From an uncultured Pseudomonadales bacterium (GTDB lineage: Bacteria > Patescibacteriota > Microgenomatia > UBA1400 > Chazhemtobacteraceae): a DNA stretch of 64,000 nucleotides. The stretch lies in assembly GCA_964618725.1 (NCBI GenBank), contig CAZUBK010000001.1:260908-324907 (forward strand), in the 5' to 3' direction. The position numbers and the translations under genes are program-made. Within the stretch, counting starts at the first letter, position 1; each line of letters begins with the position of its first letter. Below, in pieces: positions 5,896 to 64,000 of this stretch. Under the pieces are notes generated by a model that did no database searches, was not told the origin of the DNA, and was given only the letters and a program-made list of their open reading frames with translations.

Positions 5896-7248
5896 TTATG
5901 GCTTGATCAAGGAGACACCAAAGACGCCAAAGGTTTGCATGGTTGAATTGTGTTTGGGATTACTCGAGTAACCGACAAAGTAGGAAGCATTATCGACAAA
6001 GGGAAGAGATTTATCTTCGTAGTATTCTCTTATGGTGCCAAAACCATAACCCTCTCCGAGGAGAAAGTCGTTGACTATGTTGGGCCGATTCGGTTTGGCG
6101 CTTTCTAGTATATAGAGCATGGCACTTTTCTTGTAAAAATAACTTTGACCATCAGTAAAGCGATTAAGATTGATTATCGAAGGGATAACGATGCTAAGCA
6201 TCAAGACTACGACGATGAGGCGTCCTATCTTTGAGCTAGAGAGAGAAAGGCCTAGGAGAATGAAAAGAGTGACAACGGCAGAGAGCTGATAGTATTCAGG
6301 CCAGAAGGACTGGGAATACAAGAAGAGGGCGATGATAGAGACATAAACGATGGCAACGAGCCAACGAAAAGACTTATCTTTGAGACTTCTTATGGTGAAG
6401 AAGAAAAGTAAGAGAGGAACCAAGACATATTTGTAAATGGCATGTTGATTGAGGGGGGGGAGGGCGAAAGAAAACTCGCGAGTTAGATTGCGAAAAGAAA
6501 AAAGAAACTTGTCGATTTGGGAAGTATTTGAAAGCGAATCTTGTTGAAAGAATCTAATGGCTCCCTGAAGGTTGACAAAGCTGTGCCGCAAATCGAAGAG
6601 GAGGAGAGGAAAGTATGAAGAGACAAAAGCAAGTGTAAGAAAGAAAAGACTTGAGAAGGAAAGCTCAATGCTCTTTCTATGGTGGAAGAGCCAAAATATA
6701 ATGAGGGGGACAAAGAAGATAATCTGAAAATGGAAATTGATTCCCAATCCAAGAAGAAAAGTGGCTAAAAGAGCGTGTTTGAGTTTTGGTTTTTTATGCA
6801 GTAATAATGAGATCAAACCAAGAACAAATAGGGGTATAAAAGTCACATTCCATGACATGCGATGAGAGAGAGGGGTCAGCCAGATCAGGGAAAAACAAAA
6901 GGCAGTTAGACTTGACTTGTGTTTAAGCAAGAAAAAAATACCAAGCGCAGTAAGAATATTGAAGAAACCAGCCATATAGGCACCAAAGAGGGGGTTGGCG
7001 CCAAAAAGTAAATAAAAGGGAAGCAAACAATAGTAGTACCAGGGGCCTAAATAGAAACCACTAGCGGAAACAACGCGGGGGCCGATAAGGATAGGCCGGC
7101 GGAGGTCGAGCATTTGTTTGATGGCCAAATAATCGCGTTCTTGATCATAGTTGTAGGAATATAGCTCTGATAGACGGAAAAAACTAAAGTAAAGTCCGGC
7201 TAAGAAGATAAGTGACAAGAAGAGGAAGTCAATCCGTTTAAGTTTCAT
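5896..7248 (-). CDS. GT-C fold membrane glycosyltransferase, PMT_2/ArnT-like paralog
   Basis: 450 aa polytopic protein. N-terminal YDQERDYLAIKQMLDLRRPILIGPRVVSASGFYLGPWYYY matches the paralog motif. Confidence 0.7.
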   Translation of the reverse strand: MKLKRIDFLFLSLIFLAGLYFSFFRLSELYSYNYDQERDYLAIKQMLDLRRPILIGPRVVSASGFYLGPWYYYCLLPFYLLFGANPLFGAYMAGFFNILTALGIFFLLKHKSSLTAFCFSLIWLTPLSHRMSWNVTFIPLFVLGLISLLLHKKPKLKHALLATFLLGLGINFHFQIIFFVPLIIFWLFHHRKSIELSFSSLFFLTLAFVSSYFPLLLFDLRHSFVNLQGAIRFFQQDSLSNTSQIDKFLFSFRNLTREFSFALPPLNQHAIYKYVLVPLLLFFFTIRSLKDKSFRWLVAIVYVSIIALFLYSQSFWPEYYQLSAVVTLFILLGLSLSSSKIGRLIVVVLMLSIVIPSIINLNRFTDGQSYFYKKSAMLYILESAKPNRPNIVNDFLLGEGYGFGTIREYYEDKSLPFVDNASYFVGYSSNPKHNSTMQTFGVFGVSLIKP

Positions 7249-8378
7249 GCTAGAAGTTTCTTTAGATTCTCATAAAAGTTGTCGACGCTGAAGAGATTGG
7301 CCTTTGCCTGAGCGTTGGCGGCGAGTTTACTAAGCTTTCTCTTTTGCTTGATTAGGTAAGTTGTCTGATCAACTAATTGTTTGGTTGTGTCCCAAAGAAT
7401 ACCTTCTTTGGAGGTAACGATTTCCTTTTGCCCGCCTTTATTAACGACAAGAGGAACACAACCGGCGGCCATAGCTTCGACAGTGGTGATACCAAAGTGT
7501 TCGACTGATTCGGGGTTAAGTGACTCGTCGACCTCAAAGCCAGCGGCGTGCCAATAGAAAGTAGATTTGGCATAGAGCTCACACAACTTGTCAAAGGGCG
7601 GGTTAACGACGAAATCGATCGGATATCCTTTGGTCTTATGTTTCAGATCATCAAGAATGGACGCTTCTCCCATTTGGCCACCGGCAAGAATGAGTCGCCA
7701 GCCTGCGAGACCAGTGTCGATTAGTTGCTTAAATGCTTCAATGAGAATATCTTGCCGCTTGCTATGTGAGGGAGAAGCGAAGCGACCAACATTGAGGATT
7801 AGATTCTCTTTTTTAATTCTAGACTGGAAGGACTCAACGTCAACGGGAGGATAAAGGACGACGGATTTGTTGGTGAAGAGTGTTTTATCAATGACATTCT
7901 TGGTAAAAAGAGAGTTGACGACAATGTGATTAACGGAAAGTAGTTTCAGGCGATCTAATAATGGAAAGCGGTTGGTTTTGGTAAAGGGGACTTGGTAGTG
8001 AAGAATTGTTTTTTTGCCAAAGAGGACTGGAACAGAACCATCGCTAACGACAAAGACCAGATTGAGATCTTTGAGCGATTTGTATCTAGTTGGTAGATCA
8101 GATTTGCTGGTGAAAAGATTAAAGTACTCAGAATCGACTAAGACTCCCTCAAGTTTAAGCGAGAAACGCTGACGGGCTTTTTGAAGCGTCCCCGGATCAT
8201 TCCAGGCGAGCAGAACCTGCCAACCCATCTGAGACAGACAGTCGGCAACGGTCAGGGTGTAGCGCTCGCCCCCACCGAGGGTATCTAGATATGGATCGAA
8301 AAGAAGGGCCGTGTTGGTCATAGTAGACGTATTATGACCTAACACGACCCGACTTTCATCTTTAGTTCTAGAGATCAA
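7245..8378 (-). CDS. Glycosyltransferase family 4 (GT-B fold, retaining)
   Basis: C-terminal GT4 signature EHFGITTVEAMAAGCVPLVVNKGGQKEIV (E-x7-E class). 377 aa. ATGA overlap with the downstream gene. Confidence 0.8.
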   Translation of the reverse strand: MISRTKDESRVVLGHNTSTMTNTALLFDPYLDTLGGGERYTLTVADCLSQMGWQVLLAWNDPGTLQKARQRFSLKLEGVLVDSEYFNLFTSKSDLPTRYKSLKDLNLVFVVSDGSVPVLFGKKTILHYQVPFTKTNRFPLLDRLKLLSVNHIVVNSLFTKNVIDKTLFTNKSVVLYPPVDVESFQSRIKKENLILNVGRFASPSHSKRQDILIEAFKQLIDTGLAGWRLILAGGQMGEASILDDLKHKTKGYPIDFVVNPPFDKLCELYAKSTFYWHAAGFEVDESLNPESVEHFGITTVEAMAAGCVPLVVNKGGQKEIVTSKEGILWDTTKQLVDQTTYLIKQKRKLSKLAANAQAKANLFSVDNFYENLKKLLA

Positions 8379-9075
8379 TCAAACCTGATGAGGAAAACTC
8401 CTTACAGAATTGAAAAGCCTCGGCTTGACAGTCTGGTCTGGTTCTATGCTGATACCCGTAGATGGTGAGCATTGCTTCTTGGAACTTGACCGATTTACTG
8501 TCTGCCTGAGATCCATGGATTTTGAATAAAGTAATAATGTCGTCCTTAAACTGCGTTACATCGATCATTAGATCAGGCCTAATAGGCCACATGCCATTCA
8601 TTTGTAAGACAAGAGTGGTTCGCCAAGGATCACCAATTTCAGGTTGTATGCCGGTAGCGGCCCACTTGACGGCTTCAATGCCGAGTTGAAAAGCTGCCTT
8701 GTGATCGGGGTGAAAATCTTCTTGATTCATCAGAAAGACAACCGTTGGCTTAACTTGTCTGATGATTTTGACTAACTTAAGCATTAAGGACTTGGAATAC
8801 TGAAGAGATAGATCCTCTTGATCTAGCCAAAATAGTCTTTTCAAGCCGAGAAACTTGGCTACAGCCTTCATCTCTTCTTTACGCAAAGAGGCTGTACTTT
8901 GAGAGGTCTTTTTACTCCGCCTGTCCCGGCCTTCCGAAGCGTCGGTCAAGATAACTTCGTACAGACTAGCTCCTTTTGCCTTAAGCTTAAATAAAGTTCC
9001 GGCACAGGCTATTTCGTCGTCTGGGTGGGCCGAGATGACAAGGGCCGACAAGGGCTTTTGTGTTTCTTGTGTCAT
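8368..9075 (-). CDS. PIG-L / LmbE family N-acetylglucosaminyl deacetylase
   Basis: N-terminal VISAHPDDEIACAGTLFKL is the AHPDDE zinc-binding motif of PIG-L/MshB/BshB deacetylases. 235 aa. Confidence 0.8.
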   Translation of the reverse strand: MTQETQKPLSALVISAHPDDEIACAGTLFKLKAKGASLYEVILTDASEGRDRRSKKTSQSTASLRKEEMKAVAKFLGLKRLFWLDQEDLSLQYSKSLMLKLVKIIRQVKPTVVFLMNQEDFHPDHKAAFQLGIEAVKWAATGIQPEIGDPWRTTLVLQMNGMWPIRPDLMIDVTQFKDDIITLFKIHGSQADSKSVKFQEAMLTIYGYQHRTRPDCQAEAFQFCKEFSSSGLIDL

Positions 9076-54336: not shown

Positions 54337-54372
54337 CAAAAAAATATCCAGCTTTCGTTGGATATTTTTTAT
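54337..54372 (-). terminator. rRNA operon terminator immediately after 5S (bidirectional A-run / hairpin / T-run)
   Basis: aaaaaaATATCCAgctttcgtTGGATATttttttatt. Confidence 0.55.
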
Positions 54373-54493
54373 TGCCCGGCAATGACCTATTTTCGCAAAC
54401 AGTTGCCCGCGTACTATCGTCGGCGCTGAAGCGTTTCACGACTCTGTTCGGAATGGGAAGAGGTGGGACCACTTCGCTCGAATCACCGAGCAG
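54373..54493 (-). rRNA. rrf: 5S ribosomal RNA
   Basis: Minus-strand reading ...GCGAAGUGGUCCCACCUCUUCCCAUUCCGAACAGAGUCGUGAAACGCUUCAGCGCCGACGAUAGUACGCGGG... aligns to E. coli 5S (GCGCGGUGGUCCCACCUGACCCCAUGCCGAACUCAGAAGUGAAACGCCGUAGCGCCGAUGGUAGUGUGGGG). Helix I pairs UGCUCGGUGAU with AUUGCCGGGCA. Confidence 0.8.
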
Positions 54494-55004
54494 TCAGCAG
54501 TCCAAATTGCTTTGGACTGCCTCAGCTTTGTGATTTCACTTGGCTACTTAAAAAGTGAACAGAAACGTTGGTCGCTTCTCCTGCCCCTAACCGTTAATGG
54601 AATAACAGCTAAGAGCAGGGCGCTAAAAATTTTGTTTATCCTTCGACAATTAGTACTCATGAGCTAAATGCCTTACGGCACTTACACTTTGAGCCTATCA
54701 ACCTAGTAGTCTACTAGGTGTCTTTCGTTCTTTCGAACATGGATTCCTAATCTTGGGGTGGGTTTCCTGCTTAGATGCTTTCAGCAGTTATCCCGAATCA
54801 ATGTAGCTACCCGGCATTGCACTTGAAAGTAACAACCGGCACACTAGGGATTGACGCATCTCGGTCCTCTCGTACTAGAGACGAACCCCCTCAAGAATCC
54901 CGCGCTAGCAGCGGATAGAGACCAACCTGTCTCACGACGGTTTGAACCCAGCTCACGTAGGGTTTTAATGGGCGAACAGACCAACCCTTGGGACCTCTTC
55001 CTTC

Positions 55005-55751
55005 CATAATTACTTATGGGGCAAGACTATACCTTCACCATGTCTCTAACTGTCACCAGTTAAGACTTCAGGTGCGAACCGTGTGATAGTAGGGCCGTAG
55101 CCTTATGAAATATTGAGTCTACTATCTCATCCTTGGCGCCAAACGCCAGGAATCAGTCGTTACGGGAAATGGTGTCTTCGATCTTCGCTGCATAGTTCTT
55201 TCTTCGATTTTTGGATCGAACATTGAACCCAGCTAAAGAATCAGCCAGATGAGCGATTTTTAACAAATCATTTTTGCTTGTAATCGGAAAGGAGAGAATT
55301 TCTTTTGCTAAAGCAATTTGTTCTCCTTTCCCAACACTGTAGTTATCGATGATGTTAAGAACTTCCAGAGCTTCTGTCTGGGTTTTTAAAATCCAGTCAA
55401 AAGTATTTCTATTCTTAACCACTTTTCCTCTATTAAGTTTTCCTCTCACCCATTCAAGAACACGGGGATTAGATTGAGTAATTTTGAGAATTACCCGGAT
55501 TCTAAATCCGTATTTCTTTTCTGAATGAGACTCAATAGAAGCCATGATAGCTCCATCAGCATCAATTAGACCTGCTATATACGCTTTATTTGGTTCAGAC
55601 AACATTTTTCCCACGGTACCAACCATTAACTCATTTTTATCTGGGACCTGCAATTAGCAAGTTCCTGAAACATTATTAATGGCCTCCACCGTTTTGGGTT
55701 CGATTATTACCTCACACTTTCGTGCGAGGAGAGAAGTTAAATGTTTTCTCC
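55005..55751 (-). mobile_element. Group I intron (~747 nt) in 23S domain V carrying a LAGLIDADG homing endonuclease ORF
   Basis: The exon sequence GGGGCU | GAAGAGGUCCC (E. coli GGGGCUGAAGUAGGUCCC) is interrupted. The inferred intron starts after an exon U and ends ...AUUAUG (terminal G). It shares a core (cagtcgttacggg) with the other two insertions. Confidence 0.65.
55153..55653 (-). CDS. LAGLIDADG homing endonuclease (single-motif type), intron-encoded
   Basis: ...KAYIAGLIDADGAIMASIES... carries the canonical LAGLIDADG motif. 166 aa in the longest form; the real start may be the internal Met (MLSEPNK). Confidence 0.8.
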   Translation of the reverse strand: MQVPDKNELMVGTVGKMLSEPNKAYIAGLIDADGAIMASIESHSEKKYGFRIRVILKITQSNPRVLEWVRGKLNRGKVVKNRNTFDWILKTQTEALEVLNIIDNYSVGKGEQIALAKEILSFPITSKNDLLKIAHLADSLAGFNVRSKNRRKNYAAKIEDTISRND

Positions 55752-55775
55752 AGCCCCAGGATACCCTGAGCCGAC

Positions 55776-56010
55776 CAATTATTCCTTCTATTACTAGAGG
55801 TATGGACTATATCTTCTACTTAAATTTATAAGTAGTTTGGCGTGTTATACGTTCATAAAAAGAACATATCTCATCCTTGCGGAATCAGTCTCTACGGGGT
55901 CAATCCTTCGTTGAAAACTCAGGACGACTTCCCACGGTATTAACCTAAAATGTTCATGTTTAGGCCTCCACCGTTATAGCCAAATTTAGCCTCGACGTTC
56001 GTTGTGGTTA
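55776..56010 (-). mobile_element. ORF-less group I intron (~235 nt) in the 23S peptidyl-transferase loop (after the U of ...CUCGAU|GUCGG, E. coli ~U2504)
   Basis: Exons CUCGAU (56011-56016) and GUCGGCUC... (55771-55775 onward) flank a 235-nt insert ending in G. The core block acggggtcaatcctt also occurs in the 16S insert. Confidence 0.6.
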
Positions 56011-56057
56011 ATCGAGGTGCCGAACCGCACCGTCGCTAGGGACGCTTAGGTGCGACG

Positions 56058-56088
<31 letters not shown>

Positions 56089-56424
56089 ATAAGCCCGGTG
56101 CCTCCCACGAGGCACACGAGGATCACTTGGACCTACTTTCGTATCTGCTCGACTTGTATGTCTCACAGTTAAGCATCCTTATACCCATGCGCTTACAATT
56201 CCGTTTCCATCGGAATTAAGGATACCTTTGTGCGCTTGCGTTACCCTTTAGCAAGCAACCTCCCCAGTTAAACTGCCTACCAGACAGTGTCCCTACTTAC
56301 GTTTGCAGTAAGTTTAGGTGAGGATTGTATATTTCAAAAAGAGGTGTTCCATTGGCGAACCATACAAAGTAAGGTTCTCCCTCCTACGCTCGATAGTTAA
56401 AAAACACAATCCAGTGCCAAGTTG

Positions 56425-56459
<35 letters not shown>

Positions 56460-58022
56460 TAGTAGGCCGCATCTTCACAGCCATTTCAATTTCGCCGAGT
56501 CCCCTCTCAAGACAGTTGCAAAGTGGTTAAACCTTTCGTGCGCGTCAGAACTTACCTGACAAGGAATTTCGCTACCATAGAACAGTTATAGTTACTGCTG
56601 CCGTTCACTGGGGCTTCACTTGCAGCCTAGCATCTTAAAGATGATCAGCCACGCATTTAACCTTCCAGCACTGGGCAGGTTTCAGCCTGTATACTTAAGC
56701 TTTCGCTTTTGCACAGACCTGTGTTTTTGTTAAACAGTCCCTCTGCATTCTTTTGTTGTAGCCCCGCTTGCGCGGGACAGGGCATCTCCCAAAGTTACGC
56801 CCAGCTAATTTGCCGAGTTCCTTAAGAGAGGTTCTCTCGATCGCCTTGGTCTACTCGACCTGTCCACCTGTGTCGGTTTGCGGTACGGATTGCTTGTACT
56901 CTCACTGCGACGCTTTTCCCGGAAACTGAAGTCACCCAACTCGCCTTCCTTGCGGAAGACTCGTATTCACAGCTTGAATAAACGCTCTGACGGATTTGCC
57001 AATCAAAACTGTCTCACTGATTAAACGAATATAACTTCAACATACCGCTTGGGCTATCCAATTTCGTCCCGCCCCAGCTGATAACGATTACAAACAAGAA
57101 CTGGAATATAAACCAGTAATCCATCGGGTACGCTAAACGCCTCCCCTTAGGGCCGCCTAACCCAACGTCGACGAACGTTGCGTTGGAAACCTTGGACATT
57201 CGGCGTTAATGATTCTCACATTAATTTCGCTACTCATACCGGCATTCTCACTTCTTGCCGCTCCACCATTCCTTACAGAACAGCTTCAATGCAACAAGAA
57301 CGCTCCCCTACCATACACTTATATAAATATAAAAATATCCACAAATTCGGTAACATACTTGAGCCTCGATCATCTTCGGCGCCACATTCCTCGGCTAGTG
57401 AGCTGTTACGCTTTCTTTCAAGGATGGCTGCTTCTAAGCCGACCTCCTAGGTGTCCTAGCAATGTGACTTCCTTATCCACTTAGTATGTATTTAGAGACC
57501 TTATTTGGTGATCTGGGATGTTTCCCTCTCGCCCCCGGAGCTTAGCCCCCGGGTACTGATTCCCGTAGAACACTACATTGGTATTCGGAGTTTGATTGAA
57601 TTTGAACGCTTGCGCACCCAAATCCATTCAGTGCTCTACCCCCAACAAGCTTTTATACGAGACCACGCCGAGACGTGTTTCGGGGAGAACCAGCTATCTC
57701 CAGGTTCGTTTGGCATATTACCTCTAACCACAAGTCATCCGAGCAATTTGTGACTTACACCGGTGCGGGCCTCCACTAGGTTTTACCCTAGCTTCACCCT
57801 GCTCATGGTTAGCTCACCTGGTTTCGGGTCTGCCCCATACAACTTAACGCCCTGTTAGGACTTGGTTTCCCTACGGCTTCGCCATGTAATGGCTTAACCT
57901 TGCTGCATGGAACAACTCGCCGGTTCATTCTTCAATAGGCACGCGATCATCCCGATTACTCGGGACTCTCGCTGTTTGTTAGCAATTGGTTTCAGGATCT
58001 TTTCAAAGGGTGTCTCACCCGT

Positions 58023-58063
<41 letters not shown>

Positions 58064-58745
58064 ACAAGAGTATTTAGCCTTGGACCGTGGTCGGCCCAGC
58101 TTCTCTCTAGAGTTTGCCGTCTCTAGAGGTACTCAGGGAATCCTCTGCCGATCTTAGATTTTCGCTTACGGGACTGTCACCCTCTATGGTTTCCCATTCC
58201 AGGGAATTCTTCTAATCCTTGATCTAGCGTATGAGGCCCTACAACCCCGAACCCGAAGGTTCGGTTTGGGCTGTTTCCTTTTCGCTCGTCGCTACTAGGG
58301 AAATCTCTGCGATTTCTTTTCCTCTCCCTACTTAGATATTTCAGTTCAGGAGCTTACCTGCCATTGCTGGCACATCCCGATTGCTCGGGACGGGGTTACC
58401 CCATTCGGACACCACCGGATCGATGCTTGTTTGCCAGCTCCCCGGTGATTTCGTCGACTACAAACGTCCTTCGTCGGCTCTTGTTGCCAAGGCATCCGCC
58501 AATTGCTTGAGTTGAATAAACAAAATTAATTTTATTAACGCTATTTTGATACATGATCACTCATGTATCGATGCGACCTTTGTCTTCATAGTATTACTAC
58601 TTCTTGTCGCTAATTAAATCGCAGGACGCGTTTTAGTTCCGATACAAGATTCTGAAGACAAACGTTTCTATTCACTTTTTAAAGAGCCAAGCTCCTAGAG
58701 CTTGTTACTAATCCTTTAAGGGACCAAGACAAGATCTTGAGCGTG

Positions 58746-58818
58746 TGGACCGTGTCGGGCTCGAACCGACCACCTCTTCATTGCAAATGAAGTGCTCTAC
58801 CAGATGAGCTAACGGCCC
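58746..58818 (-). tRNA. tRNA-Ala (anticodon UGC) with the G3:U70 identity pair; CCA not encoded
   Basis: GGGCCGUUAGCUCAUCUGGUAGAGCACUUCAUUUGCAAUGAAGAGGUGGUCGGUUCGAGCCCGACACGGUCCA folds as a cloverleaf. Anticodon loop UUUGCAA. Confidence 0.85.
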
Positions 58819-58971
58819 TTGTGGCCTTGTGCCCATCGGGCGAGAGAGATGTAAAAAATCTCCGTTTCCGGAGATGCCAGTTTAGGAAGTTTTGACCACA
58901 ATAGTCACTTTTTGGTGGGGCAGAACTTGTGTGAGATCAAAGTCATCATAAATTGGTTTTCCGGTACGGAG

Positions 58972-58980
58972 ATTATAACA
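58972..58980 (-). promoter_or_regulatory. Extended -10 promoter element (TGtTATAAT) about 150 nt upstream of tRNA-Ala; candidate promoter for tRNA-Ala / 23S / 5S
   Basis: Minus-strand reading: ...gcaagcTGTTATAATctccg. The -35 is weak (TTCCAA, 16-nt spacer). Confidence 0.4.
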
Positions 58981-59116
58981 GCTTGCTCATATTTTTGGAA
59001 GAACTAGTTCTTTCTCCAAAAATATTGCGCTTCCTGTTATATTCCGTCGTTAGTGGTCCTCATGCTAGTTTCACTAGCACCTGCGGTTCCACTACTTTCC
59101 GGAATATAATCAAGCA

Positions 59117-59752
59117 ATGATAATAGAGAGCTTGAAAGTTGGGGATCTAGACACAAATTGTTATGTTGTGTGGGATGAAGAGAGTGAGGAAGCGGTGATC
59201 GTAGATCCAGGAGCCGATGGGGGATTCATTAGTGAGAAAATTCTGAAGTGGAAGCTCAAGCCTTTATGCATAGTACTGACCCATGGACATTTTGATCATG
59301 TATTGGGCTGTCTTGAGATAAAGCTAAACTTTCAGATACCTATATTGCTACATAAAGAAGATGAAAGGCTATACAAACAAGCAAATAAGAGTGCCAAGCA
59401 CTGGGCGGGGAGAGCAGAAGACCCGGTACCCAAAATAGATCGATACATAAAGGAAGGGGAAGAGATCATATTTGGGAAAGAGAAATTAAGGGTGATAGAA
59501 GTGCCAGGCCATACGCCAGGGAGTGTGTGCCTGTATGATGAGCGGGGACGCAATCTCTTCAGTGGGGATACTTTGTTTAGAAATGGAGTTGGAAGGACTG
59601 ATTTCTCGTATTCTAATGAATTTGACTTAGCTCGGTCACTTCAGAAAATCAAGAGATTACCACTTAATTGTACCGTTTATCCAGGACACGGCGAGATAAC
59701 GACTATAGCTGAAGAAAAACAAATTAGAGATACTGACCAAGAATTTCTCTGA
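59117..59752 (+). CDS. MBL-fold metallo-hydrolase (GloB/hydroxyacylglutathione-hydrolase-like)
   Basis: VLTHGHFDHVLG (HxHxDH), ...PGHTPGSV..., GDTLF. 211 aa. Lies between rRNA-operon tRNAs on the strand opposite to the rRNA genes. Confidence 0.8.
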   Translation: MIIESLKVGDLDTNCYVVWDEESEEAVIVDPGADGGFISEKILKWKLKPLCIVLTHGHFDHVLGCLEIKLNFQIPILLHKEDERLYKQANKSAKHWAGRAEDPVPKIDRYIKEGEEIIFGKEKLRVIEVPGHTPGSVCLYDERGRNLFSGDTLFRNGVGRTDFSYSNEFDLARSLQKIKRLPLNCTVYPGHGEITTIAEEKQIRDTDQEFL

Positions 59753-60755
59753 CCTCTGTCGTTGAATTACATACGACAAGCTTCTGGCGTAAATCGGCGG
59801 CTCCGTCGAAACCTTTGACGTACCAAGCCAGGTGCTTGCGCATAGGAAAGAAGTGAGTCTTAGGGAAGAGTTGCTCGTATTTTCGGGCATGTTCTAGAGC
59901 CACTTTTAGCTTATCTTTAGCTGAGATTGTTTTGTTAGTGAAGACCCAGGGATTGCCAAAGGTAGCTCGACCCAAGAGGACCCCGTCAAGTTCAAATTCT
60001 TTTATTCTTCTCTTAGCATCTTCTAAGGAAGTAATATCACCATTACCAAGAAGTAGGGTCTTTGTTTTTTTGGCCAATTTAGCCGCTTTGTTGATCTCGT
60101 CCCAATTAGCACTCCCTATATACATCTGTTTGAGAGTACGACCGTGAAGCGAGATATTAGCGAGGTCAAACTGTAAGAGATGTGAGATCCAGGCTTCAGT
60201 GACTGGAGTATCGTAACCAATACGAGTTTTAACACTTAAGGGAAGACGGCGACGGCTGAATTCGGCTCTTGTATTCTTGTTGTGAATGTATTCGATGATT
60301 TGGGGGTGGATGCCAGCCTTTTCCAGGGTAATGCCGTCAGCCCAATCAGCTAATCCCTTTTGGCAGGCTTTGATAATTTGGCCGGCAAGTTTGGGATTTA
60401 AAATTAGCCCGGCGCCGGCGCCGTGTTCTTCAACAGATTTGGCCGGACAACCCATATTGATGTCCAGACCATCAAAACCTAAAGCGGCAACGACGATGGC
60501 GGCTTGATAGAAGGCATCGGGATCGGAACCAAAGACTTGGGCGACAATGGGGCGCTCTGATTCATCAAAGGCAAAATCTTTCATAAGGCGGAGTGCCCCC
60601 GCACGGATGCCCTCAGCGGAGGTAAACTCGGTAAACATGACGGCGGGCGAGCCATATTTTTTAGTAATGAAGCGCATGGCGGCATCAGTTACTCCGTCCA
60701 TAGGGGAGAGACCAATGATAGGTTTTTGAAGTTTTTGCCAAAAAGATTCTTGCAT
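59724..60755 (-). CDS. dusB: tRNA-dihydrouridine synthase (Dus family, DusB-like)
   Basis: LSPMDGVTDAAMRFITKKYG...MFTEFTSAEG...DGLDINMGCPAKSV...LHGRT...: the FMN/TIM-barrel Dus motifs with the catalytic Cys in DINMGCPA. Confidence 0.85.
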   Translation of the reverse strand: MQESFWQKLQKPIIGLSPMDGVTDAAMRFITKKYGSPAVMFTEFTSAEGIRAGALRLMKDFAFDESERPIVAQVFGSDPDAFYQAAIVVAALGFDGLDINMGCPAKSVEEHGAGAGLILNPKLAGQIIKACQKGLADWADGITLEKAGIHPQIIEYIHNKNTRAEFSRRRLPLSVKTRIGYDTPVTEAWISHLLQFDLANISLHGRTLKQMYIGSANWDEINKAAKLAKKTKTLLLGNGDITSLEDAKRRIKEFELDGVLLGRATFGNPWVFTNKTISAKDKLKVALEHARKYEQLFPKTHFFPMRKHLAWYVKGFDGAADLRQKLVVCNSTTEVREILGQYL

Positions 60756-60850
60756 CGGTATATTTTATATCAAGACTATAGTGCAAAGCTACTATTGGCG
60801 TAGATGTATGAGGAATAAGTTGAGGGGCACCATTGCTGGTGCCCCTTTTT

Positions 60851-62008
60851 TTAGAGTAGATCGTGAAGTTGCTTAATCAATTGAGAAAAGCTTTCTTCTA
60901 TTTGGATACGGTCGACCTTAGTAGACCAACTGGTAGAGCGCCGTAGGATATAGTCGACTGTAAGTCTAATCTTACCGATTTCTATCCAATCACAGCCCTT
61001 GGGGGTGCATTGACAGACTGACGTGGTGAGTTCAATCTCTGCTTCACCACCGGTGAGGCGGACCTTAAGGTGGACCTGGTCGGAATGGATAAGGTCGAAG
61101 ATACGTCTTGTTTCGCTAACAAGCATGTCGATGAACATGTACAGAATCCTTTGACGGTGAACGACATTTATTGTGCTGTCATTTCTAAGAAAAAGGCAGA
61201 TTTGCTCAAGATCGTTGATCTTTTCCTCATTAAGCGAGAATTCGATTTCGTTATGATCAGCGTCTAGAGCCATCAGATACATCGAGTCGATTTCCCAAGG
61301 ACCAGAGGTGAACTCGAGCTCTATCTCTTCAACACGAGGCGGACTGCCTTCCATGCACTCATCTTTCCTATCTTTTTCTTGAGGCGAGGAGTCCTTAGTT
61401 GGTGGTCTCTTAGAAGTTGCGGCAATGCCGATACCAACAGCGACTACTCCAAGAAAAAGAAGGGCCAGTAGACCTAAAACTAATAGAGGAAGATTGTTCC
61501 TGGGACTTGTCGCCCCGGTTGTTACTGTACTGGCTGGTAGGGGAGTCAGCGTTATTTCAGGAGAAGGAGGCGTGTCTATGGCAGGGATCAATATCTCAAA
61601 CTGTTCTCGATAGACATTGTTACTGCGATCTAGATCAGAGTAACTACCTTCCGGGTCGATCTCAAAACTAAACAAGACAGTCTGACCCAAATACTCAGCG
61701 GGGATTTCAACTTCAAAGGTCAATGTGTGCAAATCGGATGGATACGGTTTCATTGGAGGAAGAGTCTGGGACATTTCTGTCCACCAAGTGCCAAAGAGAA
61801 CTCTGACTGCTGGACTTGTTTGTTTACCAAAATTGGCGATGATGACTTGGATTACCAATACGTCGTGTTCCTCGGCTTCGCTTTTGTATAGGTGAATGGT
61901 GTTGATGTCAGTGATCGCCAGATCAACTGACTTAGTATCATCTTGGGCGGCCACTGGATAGGGGAGAAGAATCAGCAGAAAAAGACAGAACAGAATTAGC
62001 TTTTTCAA
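60851..62008 (-). CDS. Hypothetical envelope protein: signal peptide, CARDB-like extracellular domain, TM, cytoplasmic domain
   Basis: Signal peptide MKKLILFCLFLLILLPYPVAA. ...DLDRSNNVYREQF (CARDB-like). A TM segment (LPLLVLGLLALLFLGVVAVGIGIA), then a ~200-aa cytoplasmic region. Confidence 0.5.
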   Translation of the reverse strand: MKKLILFCLFLLILLPYPVAAQDDTKSVDLAITDINTIHLYKSEAEEHDVLVIQVIIANFGKQTSPAVRVLFGTWWTEMSQTLPPMKPYPSDLHTLTFEVEIPAEYLGQTVLFSFEIDPEGSYSDLDRSNNVYREQFEILIPAIDTPPSPEITLTPLPASTVTTGATSPRNNLPLLVLGLLALLFLGVVAVGIGIAATSKRPPTKDSSPQEKDRKDECMEGSPPRVEEIELEFTSGPWEIDSMYLMALDADHNEIEFSLNEEKINDLEQICLFLRNDSTINVVHRQRILYMFIDMLVSETRRIFDLIHSDQVHLKVRLTGGEAEIELTTSVCQCTPKGCDWIEIGKIRLTVDYILRRSTSWSTKVDRIQIEESFSQLIKQLHDLL

Positions 62009-62100
62009 AATTACCTCCGATTAAAAAGGGCGATGGAGCTATTTTACTATAAGTTTGAGAAAAGAAAAAGAGTGAGACGGGTTGTCTCACTCTAGAATAA

Positions 62101-62307
62101 TTACAATCGACGAAGATTGGCGGGGTCGACGATATAGGTTTCGCCGATATAGAAGTAAAGATAAGAGTTTACAAATACCTCAAGAAACTCAATCTCGACT
62201 AAGCGATCAGTGATTTTTAGAACCTTGATCTTGGCTTGCTCATGTCCATGGAACGGACGAAAGAGAAGGACATCGCCTACTTTGATGTCTTTGGTCGTTA
62301 GAACCAT
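62101..62307 (-). CDS. Small hypothetical protein (68 aa)
   Basis: Intact ORF between the hypothetical envelope protein and tRNA-Ile. Confidence 0.35.
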   Translation of the reverse strand: MVLTTKDIKVGDVLLFRPFHGHEQAKIKVLKITDRLVEIEFLEVFVNSYLYFYIGETYIVDPANLRRL

Positions 62308-62341
62308 TTAAGTCTCCTTAGGTTTGATTTTTCGATACAGT

Positions 62342-62415
62342 GGGCGCTCATGGGGTCGAACCATGTACCTTAGTCTTATCAGGACTACGCTCTGACCAGA
62401 TGAGCTAAGCGCCCT
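62342..62415 (-). tRNA. tRNA-Ile (anticodon GAU)
   Basis: GGGCGCUUAGCUCAUCUGGUCAGAGCGUAGUCCUGAUAAGACUAAGGUACAUGGUUCGACCCCAUGAGCGCCCA. Anticodon loop CUGAUAA. Proper cloverleaf. Confidence 0.85.
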
Positions 62416-62791
62416 TAAATTTTCTTTAGGCTCTATTACACCAGATGAGTAAGAGCTTGCTCACTTTTTCAGAGTAACTTCGTTACTTTTCTGAAACGCT
62501 GTGCTTCCTCTTATATCATGCGCCGATAATGGCTTGCGCACTATCGTCTGGATATAATCGCCCGTAGGCTCATATTTTAACATGAGACAGGTTTTTTTGA
62601 TACCAAAAATCCACCTATCCGGTGGTTTCTTGGTGCATTACTTATTTTCTTTCTCTTCTAAGACGTGACAGGAAACTGCGCCGGCATTTGAAGCTAAGAG
62701 AGCTTCATTTGCCTCCGAAGATTATTTTACGACTGATCTTCAAAGTCGGGCGTATTGTTTACGGTAGTCGTGAACTACCGCACACTCCTTA

Positions 62792-64000
62792 GAAAGGAGG
62801 TGATCCAGCCGCTCCTTCCAGAACGGCTACCTTGTTACAACTTAGCCCCCATCGCCAGTCTAACCTTAGGCGGCCGGCTCCTTGCGGTTACCGGGACCGA
62901 CTTCGGGTCCTACTGACTTTGTTGACTTGATGGGCGGTGTGTACAAGAAATGAGAACGTATTCACCGCGGTATGGCTGACCCGCGATTACTACCAACTCC
63001 CCTTCACGCGGTCGAGTTGCAGACCACGATCCGTACTGAGGAAGGCTTTATTAGGATTAGCTCCGCCTTGCGACTTCGCAACCCGTTGTACCTTCCATTA
63101 CCCCATGTGTGTCGCCCTAGGTGTAAGCGCCATGCTGATTTGACGTCGTCCCCTCCTTCCTCCCTGGTTGAACCAAGGCAGTTTCGCATGAAATACAACA
63201 TGCAATAGGGGTTGCGTTCGTTACTGTACTTAAACAGACGCCTCCTAAATATTTTAGATTTCTCTAAAAATTAGACTATACCTTCATCCCGCGAGCGGGA
63301 GACCGGCGTGTTATATACATTATAAATTTAGACCAAAGTCTAAAATGTATATCTTCGTTTTACGATAAATAAAACTTCAGTCGTTACGGGGTCAATCCTT
63401 TGCAGGATGACTTCCCTCGAGATTGCCCATTTGATTTAAGTAAACCCAAAAGTTTACCGAAAATCAACAGGGGTTCCTCGATATGAGCCGGTTTTTTCAT
63501 CACTGTTACCAGTGAAGGTCGCGATAGCATTCACGACACGAACTGACGACAACCATGCAGCAGCTGTGTATCACCCTCGAAGGCTTCCTCTGTTTCCAGA
63601 GGCTTGCAGATACATGTCAAACCTAGGTAAGGTTCTTCGTTTCGTCTCGAATTAAACCACATGGGACGCTGGTTGTGCATTTCCCCGTCAATTCCTTTGA
63701 GTTTTAACCTTGCGGTCGTACTCCCCAGGCGGAACACTTAACGCGTTAGCTTGCGCCAGCCAGATTACTCCGACTAGCTAGTGTTCAAAGTTTACGGCTA
63801 GGACTACAGGGGTCTCTAATCCCTTTTGCTACCCTAGCTTTCGTTCATCAGCGTCAGTCAAGTCCTAGATGCCTGCCTTCGCCCATGGTGTTCTTCTTAA
63901 TATCAACGGATTTCACCCCTCCACTAAGAATTCCAGCATCCCCGAACTGACTCTAGTCTGATAGTTTGACGAGCAGATCCAAGGTTGAGCCTTGGGCTTT
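62792..64000 (-). rRNA. rrs: 16S ribosomal RNA, 3' portion (partial; the 5' end lies beyond the window), interrupted by a ~287-nt insertion
   Basis: The 3' end ...GGAUCACCUCCUUUCU (complement of aaaggaggtgatcc at ~62793). Conserved blocks GUACACACCGCCCGUCA, CAUGGUUGUCGUCAG and AACGAACGCAACCC in order, collinear with E. coli except for the insert. Confidence 0.85.
63241..63527 (-). mobile_element. ORF-less group-I-like intron / intervening sequence in 16S (near E. coli position ~1080)
   Basis: Exons ...GUGUCGUGAAUG | (insert) | GUCUGUUUAAGUACAGUAACGAACGCAACCC are otherwise contiguous with E. coli 16S (GUGUUGUGAAAUGUUGGGUUAAGUCCCGCAACGAGCGCAACCC). The insert is AT-rich and shares the core tcagtcgttacggggtcaatcctt with the 23S introns. 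Confidence 0.55.

Follow-up and report, generated by a model that had tools for sequence, protein, structure and literature searches.

The window analysed here is a 64,000-nt stretch of contig CAZUBK010000001.1 (positions 260,908 to 324,907; GenBank assembly GCA_964618725.1), and it carries an rRNA locus in which protein-coding genes stand between the 16S and the 23S rRNA genes. Almost every gene of the window lies on the minus strand, and on that strand the order is 16S rRNA, tRNA-Ile(GAU), a 68-aa open reading frame (ORF68), a gene for a 385-aa membrane protein, the gene for the tRNA-dihydrouridine synthase Dus, a gene for a metallo-β-lactamase (MBL)-fold hydrolase on the opposite strand, tRNA-Ala(UGC), 23S rRNA and 5S rRNA (Table 1). 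RNA genes were called with Rfam and ARAGORN, and these calls, together with Pfam, agree in every structural point with the order given in an earlier reading of the sequence alone (hereafter the original prediction), including the opposite-strand MBL gene. The gap between the two tRNA genes measures 3,521 nt and holds four open reading frames (ORFs), and 16S lies 4,270 nt away from 23S (62793 minus 58522). By the published definition, which asks for more than 1,500 nt between 16S and 23S (Brewer et al., bioRxiv 10.1101/705046; subsequently in ISME J), these are unlinked rRNA genes, a trait already reported to be common in Patescibacteria; the closest homologues of the window's Dus carry the names Patescibacteria, Peregrinibacteria and Roizmanbacteria. 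We read the locus as the single rRNA locus of a bacterium of the Candidate Phyla Radiation (CPR)/Patescibacteria that has kept the ancestral order and orientation of its rRNA genes and lost their function as one operon, and we put the probability of this reading at roughly 0.7.

Table 1. Features of the split rRNA locus, listed along the minus strand from 16S to the end of the 5S unit; coordinates are window positions unless a relative is named.
Feature	Position	Strand	Evidence or remarks
16S rRNA, 3' two thirds	62793-64000	-	truncated at the window end; Rfam RF00177 at 808 bits (model positions 597-1533)
Terminator-like hairpin CCACC-GGATA-GGTGG + T-run after the 16S trailer	62605-62625	-	followed by conserved TTTTTGGTAT
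Extended -10 TGTTAAAAT, candidate promoter of the tRNA-Ile unit	62574-62582	-	conservation in relatives
tRNA-Ile 5'-end remnant, 14 nt, GGGCGATTATATCC	62551-62564	-	right behind the spacer promoter; read from sequence
70-nt hairpin module, copy A (GGAAGC...hairpin...AAAAA..GAGCAAGCT)	62440-62515	-	alignment with copy B and the L007 spacer
tRNA-Ile(GAU)	62340-62414	-	ARAGORN; Rfam tRNA 62.7 bits
ORF68 (68 aa)	62101-62307	-	begins 33 nt past tRNA-Ile; AAGGAG Shine-Dalgarno
Terminator-like site after ORF68	62058-62093	-	10-bp stem, then TTTTTCTTTT; strong
385-aa single-pass membrane protein	60851-62008	-	signal peptide, weak CARDB-like domain, transmembrane helix, C-terminal domain without known function
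Terminator-like hairpin between the 385-aa gene and Dus	60822-60854	+	11 bp, then T7
Dus tRNA-dihydrouridine synthase	59724-60755	-	Pfam PF01207, 1e-54, 186 bits (cut-off 20.4)
MBL-fold hydrolase, 211 aa, YcbL/glyoxalase-II type	59117-59752	+	Pfam 1e-32; PDB 2xf4 at 3e-34
70-nt hairpin module, copy B	58968-59040	-	runs into the tRNA-Ala promoter
Extended -10 TGTTATAAT, candidate tRNA-Ala-23S-5S promoter	58972-58980	-	conserved equivalents in six relatives
Leader, about 113 nt	58852-58965	-	mini-ORF inside, terminator-like hairpin at the end
Mini-ORF, 14 codons, MMTLISHKFCPTKK	58905-58949	-	inside the leader
Leaders in relatives	L095 3134-3262; L007 4752-4862; L004 11590-11704; L002 12373-12482; L097 3061-3178		
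tRNA-Ala(UGC)	58745-58818	-	Rfam, ARAGORN
boxA-like element GCTCTTTAAAAAG	58675-58687	-	between tRNA-Ala and 23S; kept in four aligned genomes
23S rRNA	54631-58522	-	Rfam; two group I introns inside
Group I introns of 23S	56010-55776 and 55745-55001	-	30-nt exon between them, domain V
5S rRNA	54374-54490	-	Rfam
Hairpin TATCCA...TGGATA + T7 directly after 5S	54338-54364	-	read from sequence; likely unit end

tRNA-Ala, 23S and 5S had been proposed to be transcribed independently of 16S and tRNA-Ile. The extended -10 element TGTTATAAT lies on the minus strand exactly where the original prediction had put it, and an extended -10 of the form TGnTAnnAT precedes tRNA-Ala on the rRNA strand in 7/7 genomes, as TGTTATAAT in the window and in L095, TGATACAAT in L007, TGGTAAAAT in L004, TGGTAGAAT in L002, TGCTAAAAT in L097 and TGGTAAGAT in L096. 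The flanking sequence is barely alignable among the seven, and the background frequency of TGnTAnnAT in the sequences analysed is 0.037 matches per 200 nt of one strand. In L096, the element has TTGAAA 17 nt upstream, stands 25 nt before tRNA-Ala and is not followed by a leader. An element kept amid diverged flanks lends strong comparative support to the proposal of an independent promoter for the 23S half, with transcription itself predicted from sequence. The boxA-like element between tRNA-Ala and 23S resembles E. coli boxA (GCUCUUUAACAA), and the 23S unit could therefore load its own antitermination factors. MBL, for its part, needs a divergent promoter within the same 298-nt gap.

A second candidate start point lies in the spacer between 16S and tRNA-Ile, which contains one strand of the 16S leader-trailer processing stem. 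In the window, L007, L009, L010 and L012, the spacer elements follow one another in the same order, namely the processing-stem strand, a GC-rich hairpin, TTTTTGGTAT and TGnTAAAAT. Hairpins with a T-run, each followed by an extended -10, occur at the same position in L007, L009, L010, L012 and L002 with differing stems (CCCCG/CGGGG, CCCGC/GCGGG and, as in the window, CCACC/GGTGG). TGnTAAAAT stands 8-13 nt ahead of tRNA-Ile in L007, L009, L010 and L012, and in the window about 150 nt are inserted between the extended -10 and tRNA-Ile. This terminator and promoter pair was overlooked in the original prediction, as were the strong terminator-like site behind ORF68 and the leader hairpin ahead of tRNA-Ala (58875-58858).

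We then compared the locus with those of its relatives, of which three, from other samples, each carry 16S, Dus-MBL and tRNA-Ala-23S on one contig. The order in L007 is the 16S end, tRNA-Ile, a D-Ala-D-Ala-ligase-like gene (Ddl), RRM, Dus, MBL, tRNA-Ala and 23S (16S-23S distance 4,953 nt), and in L096 it is 16S, tRNA-Ile, Dus, MBL, tRNA-Ala and 23S (3,829 nt). On the 784-kb contig L002, 16S is followed by three genes, an inverted tRNA-Ile, RRM, Dus, MBL, tRNA-Ala, 23S and 5S (6,753 nt), so that opposite-strand genes stand between its rRNA halves; one such stretch, past 16S and before the inverted tRNA-Ile (7128-8967), is an opposite-strand pair of an AAA_21 ATPase and a DUF4276 gene that looks like a defence-type system. 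Further Dus-MBL...tRNA-Ala(-23S) loci were found in L004, L095 and L097, with no 16S within 10 kb upstream in L004. The core was seen in at least five other samples. A sister group, L009-L012, whose Dus proteins are 59-61% identical, has 16S, tRNA-Ile, Dus 30-34 nt on and then MBL-SIMPL-S1-RadA, with an NYN gene preceding Dus in L012, and in these loci neither tRNA-Ala nor 23S was found after MBL. In a neighbour-joining tree of Dus, the split loci are monophyletic, with the 16S-tRNA-Ile-Dus loci as their sister clade; in the latter, the gene of this tRNA-modifying enzyme is apparently co-transcribed with tRNA-Ile, a neat if minor curiosity. Among 80 metagenomic loci with more distant Dus (mostly ≤56% identity), which served as outgroups only, none had rRNA nearby or an MBL gene adjacent to Dus; a scan of a genome collection with Dus returned just two distant loci (46% and 39% identity), which are uninformative on synteny. 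A 23S gene about 5 kb from Dus in L005, on the other strand, was taken as coincidental.

Dus-MBL directly behind 16S-tRNA-Ile is the constant feature of these loci, and the cargo between tRNA-Ile and Dus is variable, with ORF68 and the membrane protein in the window and Ddl, RRM or AAA_21 with DUF4276 elsewhere. By the synteny comparison that had been suggested as a check on lineage-specificity, the arrangement with its Dus-MBL core is clade-wide and not specific to the window genome. The unlinked state is likewise conserved in the clade rather than sporadic, judging from the distances in L007, L096 and L002, from L004 and from the sister clade. Genes with RNA-related domains recur near Dus, namely the RNA-binding RRM_1 (L002, L004, L007, L093), an NYN nuclease (L012, 9406-9909) and S1 (L009-L012); the window is without them. 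As to the direction of the event, two courses are possible. Dus-MBL may have entered an intact spacer, the sister clade later losing the 23S half at this site, or the two units were independent beforehand and came together secondarily, tRNA-Ala-23S-5S settling between MBL and SIMPL. The latter is slightly favoured because MBL adjoins SIMPL in L081, a metagenomic outgroup locus.

Taken together, independent transcription of 16S and 23S is well supported in silico by promoter and terminator motifs, which would divide the locus into four units. The first would comprise 16S and its processing-stem trailer and end at the hairpin and U-run behind them. The spacer promoter TGTTAAAAT would drive a second unit of tRNA-Ile and ORF68, ending at the terminator-like site behind ORF68. 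The 385-aa gene and Dus would form a third, converging on the opposite-strand MBL gene. From its own promoter TGTTATAAT, the fourth would run through the leader, tRNA-Ala, boxA, 23S and 5S to the hairpin after 5S. On the plus strand, the hairpin between the 385-aa gene and Dus would halt transcripts that start at the MBL promoter and run antisense to Dus before they reach the tRNA-Ile/16S side.

The leader ahead of tRNA-Ala is a less expected part of the locus. Leaders of 105-115 nt occur in six genomes (window, L095, L007, L004, L002 and L097), and in all six a promoter is followed by a terminator-like hairpin before the first gene, as in an attenuator. The hairpins have a tetraloop and a run of 5-8 U and lie 35-60 nt ahead of tRNA-Ala; in the window, the hairpin is ATCTCCG-GAAA-CGGAGAT followed by T6 (58875-58852). 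The stems vary in a compensatory manner, for example ATCTCC/GGAGAT in the window and AGCTCC/GGAGCT in L002. With both strands of about 1 Mb counted, the hairpin pattern NCTCC-N3-9-GGAG-N1-2-T5+ has just 11 occurrences, and 8 of these are leader copies, including the duplicate contigs L001 and L003. The hairpin is not there to end an upstream gene, because in L095 the gene upstream, which is co-directional, already stops at a separate terminator ahead of the leader promoter. RNase P would remove the leader when tRNA-Ala matures, so that any role of a conserved leader would have to be played while transcription is under way or by a separate RNA.

When the leaders were folded, the 5' end (ACCGGA, UGCCGAGA, GGAGA or ACGGA) could pair with the terminator 5' arm in 5/5 leaders. 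This alternative pairing completes a long hairpin in which an AUG is sequestered as well; it is the minimum-energy fold in L007 and L004 and lies 3-6 kcal/mol above the terminator fold in the others. The two folds are within 1-6 kcal/mol of each other, with structures of -19 to -35 kcal/mol. In all five leaders, the terminator 5' arm finds its best partner in the first 14 nt, which none of 52-61 other windows along the leader equalled. Support from covariation is weak: 68% of cells are paired in a four-sequence alignment vs 65.5% in shuffles, 74 of 500 shuffles being as high, and RNAalifold, given five leaders aligned with MAFFT, recovered the terminator hairpin alone. The covariance model R1, built for the leader, detects the four sequences behind it, finds the L002 leader at only 19.9 bits (E 0.69), misses L097 and turns up no further copy, either elsewhere in the window or in 36 loci; because it links the window and L002 leader groups without significance, homology between the two groups is not established. 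No Rfam family matched 58819-59116 at E values up to 1, and a known RNA family was dismissed on that ground and since the leader is neither signal recognition particle RNA-like nor 6S-like, its apical part being variable.

A mini-ORF of 13-14 codons, with start and stop aligned, is present in 6/6 leader genomes. Its AUG stands 8-13 nt from a GGA(G) element, and the same element forms one strand of the proposed antiterminator helix. The encoded peptides (MMTLISHKFCPTKK, MMKLISFLICPTNT, MILLTQNFTFFLTS, MMILKLNQTALTT, MQNLTFSNRLLFHT and MQKTHFTDRLTFHT) share no regulatory codon run, and a conserved peptide was ruled out at the sequence level, close pairs differing by 6 non-synonymous vs 1-2 synonymous codon changes. 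Collectively, these features are suggestive of a leader that acts as an attenuator of the 23S-5S unit, a candidate role that is not established; that it represents an undescribed type of transcription attenuator, devoted to a tRNA-23S-5S unit, we hold to be a tentative idea and less likely than not. Under such an arrangement, read-through would be permitted by a helix that joins the leader 5' end, where a Shine-Dalgarno-like GGA/GGAG lies, to the terminator's CUCC arm, and occupying or unfolding the 5' part would let the terminator form. Candidate occupants would be a 30S subunit, a ribosome translating the mini-ORF of 14 codons, a protein or a ligand.

A superficially similar series of elements lies upstream of 16S in the sister clade, where the promoter-like TGGTAGAAT/TGGTAGACT leads to UUAUGAUGA/UUAUGACAA and then to a hairpin with T7, about 60-180 nt before 16S (L009 around 1040-1105, L012 around 7440-7525). 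We did not count this as support for the leader, since the pairing between 5' end and hairpin arm is not kept between these close relatives and the hairpin may equally belong to the co-directional gene upstream.

How far do these data exclude a locus that still works as one operon, in which a boxA-modified polymerase from upstream of 16S reads through to 5S and the internal promoters merely top up? A single-transcript rrn operon has the order 16S-tRNA(s)-23S-5S on one strand, and the locus has it too. Such an operon also has a spacer with only tRNAs and processing signals, whereas here there are four ORFs with MBL on the opposite strand, and it has no intrinsic terminators from 16S to 5S, whereas here terminator-like sites lie at 62625-62611, 62093-62069 and 58875-58858, and the region holds 11 such sites vs 3.7 ± 2.0 in shuffles. 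Continued read-through is consistent with the order 16S > Ile > Ala > 23S > 5S and its orientation being kept in the window, L007, L096 and L002, with protein genes that begin 30-53 nt past tRNA-Ile and leave no space for a promoter, and with the boxA-like element. It is difficult to reconcile with MBL, which is convergent on Dus and overlaps it, so that transcription from the 16S side would run antisense through MBL; with the 10-bp hairpin behind ORF68 and the conserved terminator-then-promoter pair in the spacer; with the opposite-strand genes and inverted tRNA-Ile between the halves of L002; and with L004, which lacks 16S within 10 kb, and the sister clade, which lacks 23S at the site. We therefore consider a functional single operon improbable. 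Several points nevertheless weigh against separate transcription. All promoters and terminators are sequence predictions, and a generic sigma-70 scan showed no enrichment, with 7 promoters vs 7.2 expected in shuffles and the extended -10 sites absent from its list, so that support for the promoters rests on their conservation and not on that scan. Order and co-orientation of the halves are kept in four genomes, and some read-through could be under selection. rRNA antitermination complexes are able to ignore terminators. Lastly, because a terminator-like hairpin stands between TGTTATAAT and tRNA-Ala, the output of this promoter would itself depend on read-through.

That hairpin invites another explanation, in which promoter, leader and terminator make up a self-contained small gene, for a small RNA or the 14-aa peptide, and tRNA-Ala-23S-5S is driven from elsewhere. 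The cassette is complete from promoter to terminator, its structure is stable and the mini-ORF recurs in every leader genome. Between the leader hairpin and tRNA-Ala, however, there is no conserved promoter; L096 has the same promoter type close before tRNA-Ala with no leader at all, the peptide is unconserved, the Shine-Dalgarno spacing varies, and the cassette always lies directly 5' of tRNA-Ala, whichever gene is upstream. A separate small gene thus appears rather less probable still than one operon. The last explanation, that the 3.5 kb are an assembly chimera or a recent foreign insertion (a mobile element) peculiar to the window genome, is very improbable. rRNA genes are classic assembly break points, and contigs do break in assemblies exactly at the two tRNA/rRNA borders; the tRNA-Ile-to-Dus cargo differs among relatives, and a tRNA-Ile 5' remnant lies in the spacer. 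Yet the locus is not a mis-assembly, the alternative that the original prediction had named as its refutation: L001, a 4,030-nt contig from an independent Logan assembly of run SRR12113420, is identical (100%) to window positions 62818-58789 and spans both junctions, ending 26 nt inside 16S and 30 nt inside tRNA-Ala, and the relatives carry the arrangement on single contigs from other samples. Nor does the segment have the marks of an integrated mobile element or genomic island, that is, an integrase or transposase, flanking repeats and deviant composition. A Pfam search of its proteins gave no integrase or transposase domain, its only repeats are a 70-nt module and the 14-nt tRNA-Ile remnant, and its GC content of 0.41-0.46 matches the flanks.

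A duplicated tRNA-Ile fragment analogous to the remnant occurs in L096 (TTTTGGGCGATTAGCT, around 2040-2215); the functional tRNA-Ile follows 150-170 nt past the remnant in the window and L096, or lies inverted 3 kb off in L002 (remnant around 6290-6320). The start of tRNA-Ile seems to be a recurrent insertion point. The 70-nt module, of which the L007 spacer has one copy (330-405) in another relative position, shows 74% mean column identity over copies A, B and L007 and a hairpin with compensatory changes. Its Smith-Waterman score is 33 vs 13.6 ± 2.3 in shuffles, none of 2,000 shuffles equalling it, and it may be a portable promoter-proximal element.

Among the protein genes, the assignment of Dus in the original prediction holds, with the Pfam match far above cut-off; the best NCBIfam match is DusB, for which the equivalog model scores 206.7 bits, under its cut-off of 293, which leaves the subfamily unassigned. 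The 385-aa protein, described earlier as a CARDB-like envelope protein, has a signal peptide and a transmembrane helix, and its CARDB match stays sub-threshold (Pfam E 7e-4, 20.2 bits vs a cut-off of 22.7), so that the CARDB label has weak support. The 3' ends of the convergent MBL and Dus genes overlap by 29 nt. A role of the MBL protein as an RNA-processing nuclease of the RNase Z/J type was dropped, given its 211 aa and best matches to YcbL/glyoxalase-II-type enzymes. ORF68 has no Pfam or NCBIfam match and no homologue among 1.84 billion representative proteins; with its good Shine-Dalgarno sequence and own terminator-like site, it may be an orphan gene or else no gene at all.

At the other end of the locus, the first Rfam match to 23S stopped at 55949 because two group I introns interrupt the gene, the second of which contains an ORF for a LAGLIDADG homing endonuclease (55153-55653, Pfam 6e-9); the 23S of L002 is intron-less. 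rRNA genes that bear group I introns, along with homing endonucleases, are described as typical of CPR bacteria (Brown et al. 2015, as reported in a citing paper), and the two introns are in line with that account, a side feature that forms no part of the split. Past the hairpin after 5S, there is a near-consensus promoter (TTGACA-17-TACAAT, 54329-54301), followed by a compact small gene, in which a 66-aa ORF (54262-54062) has GGAGG as its Shine-Dalgarno sequence and is closed by an 11-bp terminator (54055-54030).

Compared with known systems, the locus shares with the unlinked rRNA genes of Brewer et al. (bioRxiv 10.1101/705046) the distance above 1,500 nt, conservation within a clade and membership in Patescibacteria/CPR, a clade that these authors list as rich in a phylogenetically conserved trait. 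It differs from the bulk of their cases, in which 682 of 778 unlinked pairs are more than 6 kb apart, in that the halves are close, co-oriented and in ancestral order, that tRNA-Ile has stayed with 16S and tRNA-Ala with 23S, and that a conserved Dus-MBL core lies between them; their paper gives no description of intervening genes or promoters. As cited in PMC7761764, Buchnera aphidicola has a 16S unit with ORFs and no 23S (Munson 1993), and Wolbachia a separate 23S-5S unit with its own promoter (Bensaadi-Merchermek). Both resemble the present locus, in which a 16S unit with protein ORFs lacks 23S and 23S-5S forms a unit of its own; unlike it, they belong to endosymbionts, their halves are far apart, the partner genes are others and, in so far as that source summarizes them, no leader element is reported. 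A canonical rrn operon with boxA antitermination (e.g. PMC10250234) has the same gene order, both spacer tRNAs, a boxA-like element and the 16S processing-stem strand, whereas here the spacer holds four protein genes, one of them on the opposite strand, terminator-like hairpins and internal promoters. With attenuators and riboswitch platforms (trp-type, TRAP; e.g. PMC3064811) the leader shares the series of promoter, about 110 nt of leader and intrinsic terminator before the first gene, a terminator 5' arm with an alternative partner at the leader 5' end, and a mini-ORF inside; it differs in preceding a tRNA/rRNA unit and not an mRNA, in having neither an Rfam match nor a regulatory codon run, and in its weak covariation. 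In the open-access literature, we found no description of the Dus-MBL core or of an attenuator on an rRNA unit. What is particular to this locus is the combination of halves that are close and co-oriented, each with its own spacer tRNA, the Dus-MBL core and the leader on the 23S half.

The significance of the locus rests on the comparative series and on the leader, which is unproven, and not on the split itself. The series is compact and runs from linked order with separate promoters through a lone 16S-tRNA-Ile-Dus unit to a 23S unit with or without the leader, and promoter strength, termination and any attenuation are measurable across it. Surveys based on long amplicons that span 16S, the internal transcribed spacer and 23S will miss or mis-size this clade. 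With 16S and 23S uncoupled and a single rRNA copy, how the balance of the ribosomal subunits is kept without co-transcription is an open question. If the attenuator reading were true, the output of large-subunit rRNA would be set apart from that of 16S, possibly by the ribosome pool itself.

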